Source: an uncultured virus (IMG/VR IMGVR_UViG_3300025138_000017)
Taxonomy: Duplodnaviria > Heunggongvirae > Uroviricota > Caudoviricetes
Direction: 5' to 3' (one strand)
Virus record (IMG/VR): IMGVR_UViG_3300025138_000017
DNA length: 64,000 nucleotides
The position numbers and the translations under genes are program-made. The notes beneath the pieces are model-generated. The model was not told the DNA's origin and did no database searches. It worked only from the letters and a program-made list of their open reading frames with translations. Below, one piece after another: positions 19,000 through 45,379 of this stretch. Numbering within the stretch: position 1 is the first letter of the stretch; each line of letters opens with the position of its first letter.

Positions 19000-20829
19000 T
19001 TAAACTCCTAGATGACTGGGTGAATATATTTTAATTACTTCTTCTTTACCCTTAACTTTAATATCACCTATCTCTTTGCAATGATAACTTGAAGGTAGTT
19101 GGTCTTTTGTAAAACTAGATATTATAGTTTTATATTCTATATACTCATGCCGTGCAGCGGTAGCTTCGAGTCGAGCAGCAAGGTTGACTGCATCTCCAAT
19201 AACCGAATAGTCAAATCTGGATTCACTACCCATGTTACCAACAATACAATCGCCGGTGTTAATACCAGTGCCAACATTAATGTCAGGGAGACCGCGTTCT
19301 TTGTAGATTCTTTTAAGTTCATTTGTTTTTAATTCTATTTCTATTGCTGATTTGACTGCCATCTCAGCATGGTTGTTACATTCCACAGGTGCATTCCAAA
19401 AAGCCATAATACAGTCGCCCATATATTTATCAATGGTTCCTCCGTTGGCCAATATAATTTTAGTCATAGCATCTAAAAATTCATTAACTAATTCTACAAG
19501 TCCCTCAGGGTCATCATTATTTTTGTAATGCTCTGATATGGGAGTGAATCCACATATGTCCATGAATAAAAATGACATCTCTTTTCTGTCTCCACCCAGC
19601 TTTAATAGCGATGGGTCGTCCTGTAATTTCTGCACCATGTCAGGAGATAAATATGTTTGAAATTGTTTTTTAATCTGCTCTTTTAACTTGTAGGTTGTAT
19701 AATATTTGTTAAACGAGCTCTGCGCAAATACCACTATTGAACAAAGCAAAGCGAAGGATGCATCTAAGAAGATTAAGGTCGTCCATAAGTACCACGACAC
19801 TCCAATCGAGGCGCCAATCATACCAACTGACACTAACCCCGCAGCAGCTGTGGGAAGAGTATAGACCGCTAGAAGAATTCCTAAACATATGCTCACCAGA
19901 AGAGCGAGCTCGGCTATTGCACTCCAGTCGGGTTCGATTATTTGAATACCTGAAAGGGCGGTCTGAATTAGATGTGCTTGAACTTCGTGGGGATACATTG
20001 GTCCCATTGATGTTGCAACTGGATTAGAATATCCTTCAGCTGTAATTCCAAATACTAATACTTTGCCTTGAGGTATATCATCTAGTATAGATTGTGATTG
20101 AAATTTATTCCAAAATGCAATTGGGATTTGGCCAAAGCTATCTGTTGTAATTGGATCTAGTTTTCCAATCCTAACCCACTCTACTCCATTGTCTCCAACT
20201 TTAACATTATAGCTTGGTTCTCCAGTAAACACCCTAAGCGTATCGAGCGCAAGTCCAGGGTACTGAGTATCATTTGCTCTAATGATAAGAGGAGCTCTTC
20301 GCACAACGCCTGTTGGCTGGTCTGGAATACTTGCTGCAGCTCCAACTCCCATTGCCCAGTTACCAAGTATATCAATAGGATATAATAATCCTGGATATTC
20401 ATATAACCATCCTTTAGGATCTTTTCCAAATGTACCTACACCAACATGAGCACCAACTCCATCTGATAATTGATTGGTTGGTGCTGATGTTAATACTGTT
20501 GCTTTGTTTGCAATTGCTTGCATGAATTCATGATCACCACCAAATCTATCTGGCTCTGAATATATCATGTTTAAAACATATAAAGAATTGCCAGGTCCTT
20601 CGTTCATATACTTTGCCATTATCTCTCTAGGCCAAGGATACTGTCCTTCTTTTTGAATTGCTTTTTCGTCTATGTTAATAAGTACTATGTCTTCTGATTG
20701 TACTTGTTCTTGAGTCTGTTGGAAGTAATCGTATTGAATAAACCTTAAAGATTTTATTGGATCAGGATTCCATACCTTGACAGATGCCAATAGCATTATA
20801 GTTATTAATACACTCCACCACTTAGTCAT
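19000..20829 (-). CDS. CHASE2-domain class III adenylate/guanylate cyclase
   Basis: IDEKAI...GQYPWPR CHASE2 domain, 3 TM helices, FMDICGFT, IDKYMGDCIMAFWNAP, GDAVNLAARLE. Confidence 0.93.
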   Translation of the reverse strand: MTKWWSVLITIMLLASVKVWNPDPIKSLRFIQYDYFQQTQEQVQSEDIVLINIDEKAIQKEGQYPWPREIMAKYMNEGPGNSLYVLNMIYSEPDRFGGDHEFMQAIANKATVLTSAPTNQLSDGVGAHVGVGTFGKDPKGWLYEYPGLLYPIDILGNWAMGVGAAASIPDQPTGVVRRAPLIIRANDTQYPGLALDTLRVFTGEPSYNVKVGDNGVEWVRIGKLDPITTDSFGQIPIAFWNKFQSQSILDDIPQGKVLVFGITAEGYSNPVATSMGPMYPHEVQAHLIQTALSGIQIIEPDWSAIAELALLVSICLGILLAVYTLPTAAAGLVSVGMIGASIGVSWYLWTTLIFLDASFALLCSIVVFAQSSFNKYYTTYKLKEQIKKQFQTYLSPDMVQKLQDDPSLLKLGGDRKEMSFLFMDICGFTPISEHYKNNDDPEGLVELVNEFLDAMTKIILANGGTIDKYMGDCIMAFWNAPVECNNHAEMAVKSAIEIELKTNELKRIYKERGLPDINVGTGINTGDCIVGNMGSESRFDYSVIGDAVNLAARLEATAARHEYIEYKTIISSFTKDQLPSSYHCKEIGDIKVKGKEEVIKIYSPSHLGV

Positions 20830-30058: not shown

Positions 30059-30292
30059 TTACCTAAAATTAGTTTGTCGTCTTCTCATCTCAGCTTTCTG
30101 AGTCTTAAACTTATCATTGCGCTTGGTGCGCTTAAGCTCCATAGCCTTTTGATGTTTCTTTTGGTTTGGTTTTTCGTAGTGTTGTAGTTCACGGACACGC
30201 TTAACTATGCCAGCGCGCTCGCATTGATTGCGAAAGCGCCGTAGCATTTTATCAAAATGTTCGTCTTTATACTTCTGAGTCACTTGTGGCAT
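30059..30292 (-). CDS. rpsU: Ribosomal protein bS21
   Basis: FDKMLRRFRNQCERAGI...RELQHYEKP. Confidence 0.9.
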   Translation of the reverse strand: MPQVTQKYKDEHFDKMLRRFRNQCERAGIVKRVRELQHYEKPNQKKHQKAMELKRTKRNDKFKTQKAEMRRRQTNFR

Positions 30293-33550: not shown

Positions 33551-33580
33551 AAAAAAAGGGGAGGCGTATATTACCTCCCC
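33551..33580 (-). terminator. Intrinsic terminator
   Basis: GGGGAGG...CCTCCCC stem followed by T7 on the minus strand. Confidence 0.85.
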
Positions 33581-33596
33581 GACAGGGCCCTTGTTG

Positions 33597-34651
33597 CTAT
33601 ATGAAATGCTTCATCGATGGCTTAGTGTCAACTCCATCTAGTATGAAATCAGCCATAGCATTCTCTTCATCTCTGATATCATCATAGAAGTTGTTTCTAA
33701 TAGTACAGTACTCTACATCACTAGCATATAGTCTTAGTACTAGCTTAGCCATATTAGGTTCCTCGTCTATCAGGTTGTATACTAAGTCTTCTTTCATAGC
33801 ATCAAAAGGTCTATACGCTCCCGGTAGAGACCTATCATGGTTGATGAAGTTTATTAGTGTCTGTCTAGCATCATCGAATCTACTCATTACGAATTCGTTA
33901 TATTGTGTTGCTTTATTCATTACGCTACCTCCAGGTCTAGTTCACCAGTGAATGGAGCAGACTTTCTATCGCCTGGCTCCTCTAGTGTAGTACAGAACCT
34001 TTCTTCTATAGTGTAGTTGAATTGTATCTGTTTGAATCCAAAGCTGTCTACTATGTAAGCAGCTCCGTCTTGGTCTGGTGAGTTATCTACTATGATATCA
34101 CCTACTGATAGAGAATGCATATCTCTACACTCCCATTTACTACCATCTTTCCTAGTACCGCTCTTTTTACGGAATCCAGATACGTGACAATCAAACACAT
34201 CATCATGACCTGTATCTTCATCAGTGTAGTATCCATTAAGGATTCTAAACACCTCTTCTTTGTCATCGATATACCAATCATGACCTTCTTGAGTCATTCC
34301 ACCAAACCAGTCTACTGTACAGACCTGTCTGTATTTGTCGGACTTAGAAACGTCCCAATGTTTAGCTCCTACAAACATACAATCTCTATCATTCGATTGA
34401 AAAATCTTGTAATGTAGAATGTGTGGTTCTCTTTTGCTTTCTAATATAGTCATATTTACTCCTTAATAATTGAAAAATTGGTTATTAGTTGTTTCATATA
34501 GCTCGCCTTCTAAAGCAGCAGCTATATCATTTAAGATAAACTCTTCTAATGATTTGCAGCTCAAATCATTCTTATTTTTGAATTGAGTCACTTCATCTTG
34601 ACCAAGAACAACCTCTTTAGTCTTTCCATTTATTTCTAGTTTCAATATCAT
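33597..34651 (-). CDS. Three early hypothetical proteins (33597-33920, 33920-34453, 34463-34651)
   Basis: RBSs present; 33920-34453 has the HSLSVGDII...YIVDSFGF (YodL-like) motif; promoter TTGACT-N17-GATAAT at 34681-34709. Confidence 0.6.
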
Positions 34652-34738
34652 ATTAACTCCTTACTTTGTAATATATCCCCATTATCTACATCTCGTGATT
34701 TGAAGTCAACAAGCAACCCCAAATCAATCAAAATAAAT

Positions 34739-34993
34739 TTACTCCTCAACAACATAAATCTTAACACTATCTTCTTCACCAAAAGATATCTCACAAAAAC
34801 ATTCTTCAGTTATTCCACCAAATTCCATTTCCATAAATTCATTAACATAATCTCTATCACCATCAACTTCATTAACTAACATATCTTCTCTATTATAAAG
34901 ATATTCATCAACTAACTTATCCAATTGTTTAATACCACCAAAAGTAATATCAACTTCTCCTCTACTACCATACTTTACAAATTTAAAATTCAT
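34739..34993 (-). CDS. Acidic small protein, nearly cytosine-free gene (paralog 2)
   Basis: RBS GGAGG; GSRGEVD and SFGEE motifs shared with the upstream gene; 5 C in 255 nt. Confidence 0.75.
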   Translation of the reverse strand: MNFKFVKYGSRGEVDITFGGIKQLDKLVDEYLYNREDMLVNEVDGDRDYVNEFMEMEFGGITEECFCEISFGEEDSVKIYVVEE

Positions 34994-34994
34994 A

Positions 34995-35333
34995 TTATAC
35001 CTCCCCTTTTATAATAAAATAATTCTTAATACTTTCTTCACCAAAACTTACATCCATATATTCTTTTACATCATCCCTTATTTCTTCAAACTCATCTTTC
35101 TCTAAATTATTAAACTCAATCATCTCTTCAACAAAATCAACTTTCTCAAAATCAACTTCACCTCTACTTCCAAAATGTAAACAATACACTCCATCTTCTA
35201 CAACAACTTCATTAACAATTTTCATATCATATTCAAAACAATCATCTTTACTATCAACCATTACATCACTCAAATACAATTCATCATTACTTCTAACAAA
35301 TTCTACAAACCCTTTTTTATCAAATATATTCAT
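34995..35333 (-). CDS. Acidic small protein, nearly cytosine-free gene (paralog 1)
   Basis: RBS TAAGGA; GSRGEVD and SFGEE motifs; 1 C in 339 nt. Confidence 0.75.
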   Translation of the reverse strand: MNIFDKKGFVEFVRSNDELYLSDVMVDSKDDCFEYDMKIVNEVVVEDGVYCLHFGSRGEVDFEKVDFVEEMIEFNNLEKDEFEEIRDDVKEYMDVSFGEESIKNYFIIKGEV

Positions 35334-35381
35334 ATTACATTTCCTTACTAAATGTTAAAAACTATTTCTTAACATACAACA

Positions 35382-35410
35382 ATTATCTCATTTTGTGTAT
35401 TTGAAATCAA
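35382..35410 (-). promoter_or_regulatory. sigma70-type promoter of the C-poor operon
   Basis: TTGATT-N17-GATAAT. Confidence 0.7.
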
Positions 35411-35448
35411 CAATTTAGCAGGTTTAATTGTTTTATTTGTAATAGCTG

Positions 35449-35477
35449 TTGACTTCAAATAACGAATCAAGGATGCT
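35449..35477 (+). promoter_or_regulatory. Divergent sigma70-type promoter
   Basis: TTGACT-N17-GATGCT, then RBS AAGGAGG and ATG at 35508. Confidence 0.6.
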
Positions 35478-35507
35478 CGTGTCTGTAGTCAAGTAAGGAG
35501 GACACAA

Positions 35508-35689
35508 ATGGAAATAATTTTTTATATTGGTATGATCGGATTCGGTCTTTATTGTTTAGTGACTGAGGACATCGAAGATGTCAGATCTGACTATCCATGG
35601 ATGGGAGAGTAGTTATGTATGAACTTCATATGGTAGCGATGTATCTTGGTGTAGCTATACTGCTACTAGCGTTAATGGTGAGCAGATGA
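35508..35689 (+). CDS. Two tiny membrane peptides (35508-35612, 34 aa; 35615-35689, 24 aa)
   Basis: Strong RBS, hydrophobic, coupled; below the ORF-track cut-off. Confidence 0.5.
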
Positions 35690-35835
35690 GTATGATTCAT
35701 GATGACAATATTGAGTGTCCAGAGTGTCTGGGCAATGGTTATGATCTTGATGGTCCTATGGAGGACGACGAGATGGAAGACTGTTCTGTGTGTTGCGGGA
35801 CAGGAACGACAACAGGAGAAGACTGGTATGCATAA
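35686..35835 (+). CDS. 49-aa DnaJ-type zinc-finger mini-protein
   Basis: CPECLGNG and CSVCCGTG (CxxCxGxG x2); ATGA coupling. Confidence 0.65.
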   Translation: MSMIHDDNIECPECLGNGYDLDGPMEDDEMEDCSVCCGTGTTTGEDWYA

Positions 35836-36163
35836 AAACGTTACTATACACAATCAATACGGATCATCGCATGGATCGCAGGATCTACGTCGAGTGAGTA
35901 CTATCGAGCAAACCGGGATCAATAGGGAGCTGAACCAGGACGAGCTTGTTGCAAGCAAGAGGACCCAGGACCGGTACATAGGTCTGATCGAGAGAGAACA
36001 CGGTGTGACGTACGACGACCTAGCTCAATACCTTACGGAGCTACGTGATGGCGGTACCACTAATATGTTCGGAGCTGTACCTTTCCTGGTACGCGAGTAC
36101 GGACTTCCTAAGAGGGACGCTCAGTACGTCCTGCACTATTGGTTCGAGAACTTTAACAGGTAG
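35828..36163 (+). CDS. Hypothetical protein with YL.ELR..G.TNMFGA motif
   Basis: Start reassigned to MHKNV; C-terminal motif common in phage early proteins. Confidence 0.65.
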   Translation: MHKNVTIHNQYGSSHGSQDLRRVSTIEQTGINRELNQDELVASKRTQDRYIGLIEREHGVTYDDLAQYLTELRDGGTTNMFGAVPFLVREYGLPKRDAQYVLHYWFENFNR

Positions 36164-36238
36164 ACCCTTACACGACCCCCGGGCTGACCCCCGACAGACC
36201 CTACCCGCATTCCCTGCGGGTTTTTTACGTCCGGACCC
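36163..36238. repeat. Five GACCC direct repeats, four of them spaced 11-12 bp
   Basis: Copies at 36163, 36174, 36186, 36197, 36234. Confidence 0.7.
36203..36226 (+). terminator. Intrinsic terminator of the plus-strand early operon
   Basis: ACCCGCA-TTCCC-TGCGGGT followed by a T-tract. Confidence 0.8.
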
Positions 36239-41886: not shown

Positions 41887-42208
41887 GCAGCCTTATAAAA
41901 TATTCAGCATCCACGACTACTAATGGCTTACTGTTGTTCTTCTTCATAAACAATACTGGCTCATAATCACCACTATTGGCTTCTGCCTGTTCATATGACT
42001 TCCACACATTTACTTTTTCTTGATTCTTGCATTCAATTGAGTAAGGAAACTTAGAGCGGGCTGCTCTAGCCATAATTAGGTCCTCACCACCTGCACCCAT
42101 TGATCTTGATTCTATATCTTCTGGATGGACAGATAGCTTTTCAATCAATAGGTCTCTAACCCATTGCTGGAACCTTCTTCCTTTAGCTTTTGCTGATGAT
42201 GTTTTCAT
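41867..42208 (-). CDS. PD-(D/E)XK nuclease / Holliday-junction-resolvase-like protein
   Basis: AKAKGRRFQ, GEDL, SIECKNQE. Confidence 0.7.
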   Translation of the reverse strand: MKTSSAKAKGRRFQQWVRDLLIEKLSVHPEDIESRSMGAGGEDLIMARAARSKFPYSIECKNQEKVNVWKSYEQAEANSGDYEPVLFMKKNNSKPLVVVDAEYFIRLHGVDDE

Positions 42209-42768
42209 TTACTATACTCCATATTCACTTTACTATGACGAGCCTCATCTGCTCTCACTTTTATAATTAAATCAGATAACTTTGCACTCTTCTTCATCTT
42301 ATAATAATCTATTGCTAACTGTGGTGCTGGGACATTTTCCACTTGACCATTCTCTATCATTTCTAAGTATTGAGTATAACTGATCACTGCTTCTTCTTCA
42401 AAGTAAGCTATCATTCTATGTGCTGTCTTAAAATCTATGATGTAAATTATAAAATAGAACCACCAGAATATTAATTGAGCTATTAACACTAACAGTCTTT
42501 CAAACCAATTAGGTCTAGCTATCTCGATAAAGAACATCAAATGCATTCTCTCGTTCTCAGCTTCTTCTAGCATCTCTCTTATCTGTGGTCCCCATCCAGT
42601 CTTCATCTTTCTAAGACTTTTGAGGTGTAACCACATACCAGCAACCATTCCTGGTACACCAGCTATTGTTTCTAATACTACAGCTCTATGGCCATATCTT
42701 TTAGCAAAAAATGTGTCGGCAATGAATCTGAAAAACTTTGTCATTGATTTCGCAAATACATCTCTCAT
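42205..42768 (-). CDS. aox: Alternative (ubiquinol) oxidase AOX
   Basis: LETIAGVPG, EAENERMHL, FEEEAV.SY, RADEARH di-iron motifs. Confidence 0.93.
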   Translation of the reverse strand: MRDVFAKSMTKFFRFIADTFFAKRYGHRAVVLETIAGVPGMVAGMWLHLKSLRKMKTGWGPQIREMLEEAENERMHLMFFIEIARPNWFERLLVLIAQLIFWWFYFIIYIIDFKTAHRMIAYFEEEAVISYTQYLEMIENGQVENVPAPQLAIDYYKMKKSAKLSDLIIKVRADEARHSKVNMEYSK

Positions 42769-44669: not shown

Positions 44670-44942
44670 CTATACTAGCTCAATTCCGCTTGTATGAGTT
44701 CTGTAAGCCTTTTCGACTTGTTCGTTTGTCTCTGTTAGAAACACGTAGTTTTGAATATGTTGCTCTTCTGGACTTTCTACTCCAGTTTGACAGATACCTC
44801 TTGCGAAGCCCATCTCACCATTTGGTCCTTGTACAACCATTCTTGGATCAGTTAGGTGTACACCTGACTCATCTTTCTCTACAAATTTGCCAACGAACTC
44901 GCCAGCCATTGTGATCACCGTCACTACATCATTCTTTTTCAT
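44670..44942 (-). CDS. Small Sm-like hypothetical protein
   Basis: GEFVGK...DPR...Y...TSGI pattern seen in T4-like phages. Confidence 0.55.
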   Translation of the reverse strand: MKKNDVVTVITMAGEFVGKFVEKDESGVHLTDPRMVVQGPNGEMGFARGICQTGVESPEEQHIQNYVFLTETNEQVEKAYRTHTSGIELV

Positions 44943-45379
44943 TTCATAGTCTCCTGAATAAATTCCCCAAGTGTTTTTATATCCTGATCACTTAACATAC
45001 CAGCCTGACCCCACATAAGAGCGCTTTGTGGTCCTATTGTACCATTATTCTTATATGTAGTCAACTTATTAATAATATTACCAGAACTTTGTCCTGCTAA
45101 CTTAGGTCCTATACCTCCACCGCCATCTGGTCCATGACATGCAGCACATCCTGCCCACAGACCTCTAATGTCACTGAATGGATCACCTGCTGCAGCTTCT
45201 TTTGCTGCAACTAACTGTTCTACTACAGTACCATTTAACTCCACATACTCTGCATAACACATTCCTGTGCATGAATGAGTACTAGGATAACCTTTTACTT
45301 CTAAATCAGGATATATAACCGTAACAAAAAATAATGTAAAAGCAATACATCCTAATAATACTGTTCCCAATTCTCTCAT
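44939..45379 (-). CDS. Membrane-anchored c-type cytochrome (c553/c4-like)
   Basis: CAACHG heme motif, GPKLAGQ, distal Met (ALMWGQA), N-terminal TM. Confidence 0.88.
   Translation of the reverse strand: MRELGTVLLGCIAFTLFFVTVIYPDLEVKGYPSTHSCTGMCYAEYVELNGTVVEQLVAAKEAAAGDPFSDIRGLWAGCAACHGPDGGGGIGPKLAGQSSGNIINKLTTYKNNGTIGPQSALMWGQAGMLSDQDIKTLGEFIQETMK

Follow-up and report, generated by a model that had tools for sequence, protein, structure and literature searches.

Why would a phage write part of its message strand almost without cytosine? The question is raised by positions 34714 to 35394 of the window, by which we mean the whole stretch of DNA that was analysed (64,000 nucleotides from an uncultured virus). 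On the plus strand, these 681 nt comprise 259 A, 244 T, 171 C, and 7 G, the latter at 34785, 34809, 34900, 34927, 34944, 35177, and 35354, exactly the number and sites given in the original prediction. The minus-strand message contains 7 C in 681 nt and 25-26% G, and its T content is 38% versus ~28% genome-wide, the lost C being mostly replaced by T. The GC skew of the non-template strand is ~+0.92 directly downstream of the promoter, in a divergent-promoter region.

Across the 64 kb, the G content of 300-nt windows averages 0.160 (sd 0.035) and falls to 0.003-0.017 inside the tract, the only extreme segment in the sliding-window profile. A maximal-scoring-segment scan for each base over the 64 kb returned 34714-35394, with identical ends, as its sole strong hit (log-likelihood 91); the runner-up segments score 12-13 and are 29-42 nt long. 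The flanking DNA has an ordinary C and G content, as had been claimed, with 7-25 C per 100-nt bin downstream compared to 0-2 within the tract. The lowest T of the window is found elsewhere, among divergent small plus-strand ORFs at 35700-35950 (~19-21% per 300 nt), and in the same ORF region the segment scan marks a T-free run of 29 nt at 35795-35823. An assembly or deamination artefact, the possibility raised at the outset, is ruled out by many independent contigs (n = 37) and public runs that carry the tract. At least half of the sampled words of 33900-36200 are present in 10 public runs, and part of this region is found in 20 public-run rows from 13 studies.

The tract and its surroundings are organized as follows, in the leftward direction.

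35447..35461, plus strand: inverted copy of the -35/spacer module, pairing with 35398-35412 (15 nt, 93% complementary, 34 nt apart)
35382..35410, minus strand: predicted sigma70-type early promoter P1 (TTGATT, 17 nt, GATAAT, with TG before the -10)
34714..35394, minus strand: cytosine-poor tract, from the P1 -10 region to the P2 -35 module (composition and segment scan)
35352..35375, minus strand: 5' leader hairpin of 9 pairs (MFE structure, inverted repeat, and covariation)
34995..35333, minus strand: gene for a 112-aa acidic protein (pI 4.1), with one C-containing codon (His CAT)
34739..34993, minus strand: gene for an 84-aa acidic protein (pI 4.1), with five C-containing codons
34681..34709, minus strand: promoter P2 (TTGACT, 17 nt, GATAAT), a P1-type module at which the C-poor tract ends
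34463..34651, minus strand: 62-aa gene, 11% C
33920..34453, minus strand: 177-aa YodL-like gene, 15.5% C
33597..33920, minus strand: 107-aa gene, 16% C
33558..33580, minus strand: first terminator-like hairpin, closing the leftward unit (33558..34651)

The avoidance of C extends to synonymous sites, untranslated sequence, and amino-acid choice, as originally proposed. C-ending codons occupy 0/80 of the Y-ending synonymous sites in the two tract genes, compared to 925/2888 in 39 other minus-strand genes and 190/455 in 15 neighbouring small ORFs. For Val and Gly, they number 0 of 38 versus 173 of 1214 in the same 39 genes. Of the 9 Ser codons, 8 are AGT; the 39 other genes use mostly TCN for this residue. 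Outside its genes, the tract contains 1 C in 86 nt. The C-containing codons of the 84-aa gene are Thr ACT (twice), Gln CAA, Leu CTT, and Ser TCT; Ala and Pro are absent from both proteins.

The same property marks the relatives of both proteins. All 94 candidate clusters found for the 84-aa protein at E <= 0.01 proved to be relatives, and in them the combined share of Pro, Thr, Ala, His, and Gln has a median of 2.4% and a maximum of 6.6%. For the 112-aa family, 40 related clusters were found among 42 candidates; 29 of the 40 contain none of these five amino acids, and the rest at most 2.9%. DNA was obtained for 37 related loci (1 viral contig and 36 metagenome contigs). Homologues with normal C content and the same amino-acid bias, which would have spoken against the original prediction, were not what these loci hold: the 84-aa homologue has 0-7 C in 37/37 loci and always lies inside a C-poor tract. 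The tracts are 180-1558 nt long, the shortest ones ending at contig ends. The first C of locus L022 appears after 1033 nt that span four genes, and in L014 a run of 1134 nt contains 2 C.

Unrelated families within these tracts are equally depleted. A ~103-aa family has 0 C in 10/10 members, three families of 36-48-aa membrane proteins have 0-2.6% C, and one 57-aa and one 94-aa protein gene have 0 C. Cassette gene order and content vary among the related loci. The 84-aa family is also found fused in frame with a C-free family beginning MNNEMREK... to give 153 aa (L029:401-862 and L030:2309-2770), and the same two families occur as separate genes in L033 (2385-2654 and 2721-2927).

Codon use in the related loci parallels that of the window. 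C-ending codons number 18/1928 in 58 non-redundant C-poor ORFs versus 1128/2612 in 68 control ORFs, and Pro, Thr, Ala, His, and Gln together make up 1.8% of the C-free ORFs versus 21% of the controls. Within their codon families, GTT and GGT reach 65-67%; the proteins are richer in Phe, Ile, Val, and Tyr; and T is enriched at four-fold sites beyond the level expected from C replacement. A cause at the protein level is ruled out, since C is missing from synonymous sites and the leader as well as from unrelated families. What is strongly indicated is selection on the nucleic acid, by which C is excluded from synonymous sites, leader, and amino-acid repertoire; the exclusion from the repertoire accounts for the lack of Ala and Pro and the near lack of Thr, His, and Gln.

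The limits of the tract follow the predicted transcript. P1, proposed from the start as the boundary of an early transcript, is kept in relatives as TTGAYTTCAAATCAAC...TATAAT/GATAAT. The last C residues upstream lie in the conserved P1 spacer, and the C-free zone begins ~7 nt before the -10. In the 29 loci whose boundaries were inspected, the tract mostly starts just after the conserved promoter spacer, at the junction of ...TTGAYTTCAAATCAAC and AATTTAGTATAAT...; it starts further upstream in L007, L012-L014, L018, and L031, and L015 has no evident promoter of this kind. Downstream, the tracts of relatives extend to the next promoter module or into the next gene; that of L001 stops at the CCCC arm of a terminator hairpin. 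The 13-mer GTTGAYTTCAAAT has 3 exact copies in the window, and 18 sites match it with <=2 mismatches versus 6.95 +/- 2.8 by chance. The inverted module at 35447..35461 may form a stem-loop over the -35 or belong to a divergent promoter.

The sole C of the leader (plus-strand G 35354) lies ~22 nt from the likely start and closes a G-C pair of the leader hairpin. Among 12 sequences, hairpin columns 22/41 hold 7 AU, 4 GC, and 1 GU pairs, and compensatory changes are seen at 3/9 pairs. The hairpin may stabilize the 5' end of an AU-rich mRNA that is unstructured elsewhere. There is no terminator-like site between the P1 cassette and the next cassette, and as none is found before 33580, P1 transcripts probably run through the 62-aa, 177-aa, and 107-aa genes. 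The 62-aa gene is weakly similar to the C-free 57-aa gene of L001 (E 0.019), with the FFNY end in common. Read from these elements, a self-contained immediate-early cassette of sigma70-type promoter, 5' hairpin, and two small genes is strongly indicated; early expression is suggested by the promoter type. Contigs from RNA libraries (four runs), in which DNA carry-over is possible, cover mainly the 177-aa gene, and only one, from a rearranged relative, touches the 84-aa gene; being contigs, they say nothing about the parts left uncovered. In run X15, positions 34465 and 34766 are linked on an RNA-library contig by 213 other letters; this contig comes from a relative in which the cassette beside the 84-aa gene has been replaced, as would fit cassette shuffling.

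By its gene content, the window belongs to the genome of a marine T4-like myophage. Among its 90 ORFs, Pfam identifies gp32, gp59, T4 RNase H, a late-transcription coactivator, and a Cpn10-type co-chaperonin, and PHROGs adds ribonucleotide reductase, primase, and a baseplate protein. The auxiliary genes form a set typical of pelagimyophage-like phages.

19000-20829: 609-aa cyclase-like protein, 43.5% identical to a protein of Pelagibacter phage HTVC008M
24622-26060: CsgG/CsgF
30059-30292: ribosomal protein S21
42205-42768: alternative oxidase
44939-45379: cytochrome c

The tract lies among small unannotated ORFs in a hyperplastic small-gene region, with no change in gene orientation. The 147,284 nt of the cultured relative HTVC008M include no tract depleted in C or G, so a trait common to all relatives is ruled out. 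Searches of 50,697 phage records by tblastn returned no match for the 84-aa, 112-aa, or neighbouring 177-aa protein, so that no cultured phage among them carries these genes, and megablast of the 3 kb returned none either. Pfam searches of the 90 window ORFs, which represent part of the genome, found no recognizable RNase, viperin antagonist, or CTP enzyme as a C-dependent agent and no 7-deazaguanine or hydroxymethylcytosine enzyme that would point to DNA base modification as the cause.

The two C-poor genes encode proteins that share the GSRGEVD and FGEE motifs. The motif-encoding DNA occurs twice, 34946-34977 matching 35148-35179 at 81%, and a 13-mer at 34772 is found unchanged at 35034. The proteins align with a BLASTP E of 7e-4 and an hhalign probability of 69% (E 4.5e-5), and their predicted structures share a strand-strand-helix-strands order in residues 1-84 of the 84-aa protein and 48-112 of the 112-aa protein. 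On the basis of the BLASTP and hhalign matches and the repeated DNA, together with the like order of strands and helix, the 84-aa protein is probably a distant paralogue of residues 48-112 of the 112-aa protein, in line with the proposed kinship of the two.

The proposal that they are DNA mimics of the Ocr/Arn type found no support beyond their acidity. The models are confident (pLDDT 88.5 and 93.4) and match no solved or viral fold: Foldseek searches at E <= 0.001, run with the 84-aa model against the PDB and with the 112-aa model against BFVD, returned nothing, and the best VIA Z scores of the two (5.5 and 3.8) are at or below the tool's stated noise level. Neither protein belongs to a Pfam or PHROG family, and a protein atlas places the C-poor gene products solely in unnamed clusters (0.76-0.78). 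Acidity is common to the neighbouring genes, the three C-containing genes of the same operon encoding proteins with a pI of 4.4-4.8. The D+E content across the C-free families is 22.8% versus 14.1%, a rise due in part to the fact that Ala, Pro, Thr, Gln, and His need C in their codons.

In 21 non-redundant tracts from the related loci and the window (13,868 nt, 207 C), residual C is rarest at the 5' end, with counts of 13, 43, 57, 44, and 50 in successive fifths of the tract. It resides mostly in ACT (80 seen versus 19.8 expected from flanks), chiefly as conserved Thr ACT codons, and the next base is T in ~62% of cases. CpG is absent, versus 38.7 +/- 5.3 expected under a simple null or ~12-14 by a codon-aware estimate. 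ACA is not avoided and ranks among the most frequent contexts, with 29 of the 207 versus 23 expected. Avoidance of palindromes or restriction sites was rejected as an explanation, GC-containing 6-mer palindromes numbering 18 versus 16.9 +/- 3.7 expected; the deficit in 4-mer palindromes (19 versus 40.9) arises because CG and GC cores are missing.

A ~68-aa family within these loci exists in two forms, one C-free (4 variants, 9-13% G) and one guanine-minimal (3 variants, 1.4-6% G, 10-14% C). The guanine-depleted cassettes that carry it are neighbours of the C-free cassettes and share their strand; one example has 2 G in 222 nt.

L029:958-1179, same strand: guanine-depleted cassette with ~68-aa gene
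L015:1-227, same strand: guanine-depleted cassette with ~68-aa gene
L031:457-591, same strand: guanine-depleted cassette with ~68-aa gene
L001:2685-2807, same strand: guanine-depleted cassette with ~68-aa gene

The explanation we favour, and to which we give an even chance, is that the composition of the phage's first messages protects them from an attack that depends on C and strikes RNA synthesis or RNA integrity. The message strand is written in a three-letter alphabet of A, G, and U; C would be a liability in the first messages, which would have to be made, or to survive, while some cytidine-requiring process is active. Viperin ddhCTP, a CTP shortage, an RNase, or a deaminase may be the agent, and the transcript may serve counter-defence, as first suggested. 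In one version, a chain-terminating CTP analogue or a CTP shortage would act during transcription; in the other, an endoribonuclease would cut at C. The two versions carry about half of the weight each. The C-less transcript would pass untouched, its products would act first, and the C-containing downstream genes would follow.

The near-absolute absence of C, its rarity at the 5' end, and the restriction of the trait to a subset of first cassettes suggest that each C is costly, and such a cost speaks for a CTP supply that is limiting or chain-terminating, or else for an agent that cleaves at C. The coincidence of tract limits with transcript limits, from the promoter -10 to the next promoter or terminator, argues for a reading at the RNA level. 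The window's message could not be made with zero CTP, since it has a C in its hairpin. A plain ban on C leaves the G-minimal form of the ~68-aa family unexplained unless a G-directed counterpart exists, and neither the zero CpG nor the excess of T at four-fold sites is predicted by the favoured mechanism; no reading fully explains the zero CpG or the two-form family. Also against the favoured explanation, prokaryotic viperins are reported to act on T7 RNA polymerase rather than on the host polymerase, and the predicted cassette promoters are of the host type.

It is unlikely that the pressure acts on DNA instead. In that case, the non-template strand, which is single-stranded for short times in a unit under very strong transcription, would be protected from a ssDNA cytosine deaminase, a dC-specific single-strand endonuclease, or a base-modifying toxin. 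Such an agent would be expected to leave its mark on the same strand and from near the -10, the open-complex region, and in L007, L014, and L031 the C-free zone covers the -35, the spacer, and ~40 nt upstream, which are probably untranscribed, although these upstream stretches are short, AT-rich, and perhaps of single origin. Some C-to-T flux would fit the four-fold T enrichment. Damage to DNA would be harmful anywhere, yet the co-transcribed and same-promoter cassettes keep normal C.

An RNA that lacks G-C pairs or Rho loading sites would be unstructured, easily translated, and termination-proof, and a single cause of this kind would cover both the C-free and the G-minimal ~68-aa forms; we nevertheless hold it to be quite unlikely. 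The message folds at -93.7 kcal/mol compared to -157.9 for the adjacent 662 nt (~40% weaker). However, selection for minimal RNA structure beyond composition was rejected, as the message folds slightly better than its own shuffles (z -1.9), and with the 5' hairpin conserved, structure as such is not avoided. Rho needs C-rich RNA. Low C would suffice for either aim, so that neither zero C nor amino-acid replacement throughout whole proteins is forced, and Rho would act well on a message that is poor in G and contains C, which runs counter to the aim.

Pure mutation bias without selective value, such as transcription-associated C-to-T deamination, is very improbable. It is in keeping with the replacement of C mostly by T and with the rise of GTT, GGT, Phe, Ile, Val, and Tyr, yet an ~80-fold increase in C-to-T change would be needed, stopping at a cassette boundary within one transcription unit. 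In the promoter spacer of some relatives, G or A, not T, has taken the place of C, conserved Thr codons persist, and the related phage HTVC008M has no such tract. In our view, the main cause is selection on particular messages, with some mutational input possible, because the co-transcribed next cassette, which has the same promoter type, has normal C (11-16%) and because, of the 18 GTTGAYTTCAAAT-module sites in the window, a single cassette is C-free.

An R-loop or replication-origin element, in which positive GC skew stabilizes a priming RNA-DNA hybrid as at T4 oriF and oriG, is scarcely credible: the strong skew right after a promoter in a divergent-promoter region would suit it, but the tract is filled by two well-conserved protein genes with few G runs, the C-free ~68-aa gene has merely 9-13% G while its other version is G-poor, and gene orientation is unchanged at the tract.

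The favoured reading, a message immune to C-dependent attack, can be carried one step further, as a tentative proposal about which we are more doubtful. The C-free cassettes, whose products are acidic soluble proteins and small membrane proteins, would form a bootstrap programme: their messages would still be made and remain whole during a widespread cytidine-directed process, be it an antiviral defence or a phage-inflicted shut-off, and their products would neutralize or exploit that process, while the G-minimal twins would mark a parallel G-directed process. If this proposal is true, three-letter genes would be a genomic signature by which new nucleotide-specific immunity, and the proteins that counter it, could be discovered.

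The trait is sharp and conserved, with up to 1 kb and four genes at zero C, ~130 protein clusters in two families, and several unrelated families, and it goes with the first promoter-bounded messages of infection. To our knowledge, natural protein-coding genes that lack one of the four bases, and hence five amino acids, have not been described, and a full-text literature search returned no description of cytosine-free phage genes. The C-free cassettes point to a strong nucleotide-specific pressure, so far unnamed, at the start of ocean phage infection, and a promoter-bounded tract free of a single base provides a simple signature for finding such genes in any virus.

Several known systems resemble parts of this arrangement. 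Like Ocr and Arn, the products of the C-poor tract are small, very acidic (pI 4.1) early proteins, as far as promoter type indicates. No link to Ocr or Arn in fold or sequence was found, and much of their acidity follows from the coding constraint.

A closer match in layout is offered by the PeSL cassettes of the T4-type phages RB49 and phi1, described as a sigma70-like early promoter joined to a stem-loop (Arbiol et al. 2010, PMC2839356). According to the parts of that report that deal with the cassettes, they carry small orphan genes in a hyperplastic region, are shuffled between relatives, and fall into five subclasses, one of which has a stem-loop overlapping the -35 (PMC2839356). Here, too, the predicted P1 is directly upstream of a small gene and is conserved in related loci, and a predicted stem-loop (35398-35412/35447-35461) overlaps the -35 and is joined to the promoter. 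The module is likewise repeated (3 exact copies, 18 at <=2 mismatches), and cassette content varies between relatives. The stem-loop differs in being an inverted -35/spacer module rather than a G-run/C-run terminator, and one cassette here lacks a whole nucleotide; base composition is not mentioned in the corresponding parts of the report (PMC2839356).

Removal of a target from a message has an engineered precedent. In the single-protein-production system, as outlined in the excerpts of the two sources, ACA-less mRNAs survive the endoribonuclease MazF (PMC9102682, PMC5408214). The likeness lies in a target being removed from the message by synonymous recoding, which makes it immune to a sequence-specific attack on RNA. 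That system, as outlined there, is engineered and concerns one trinucleotide, whereas here a whole base is gone at the cost of five amino acids, and ACA is kept.

Viruses also avoid target sites in nature: phages avoid restriction sites, and animal viruses exhibit CpG depletion and APOBEC footprints. In those cases, as may be so here, where the residual C is without CpG, a host factor that reads a short motif shapes viral composition. What sets the present tract apart is that one letter is avoided, and this on one strand of one transcription unit.
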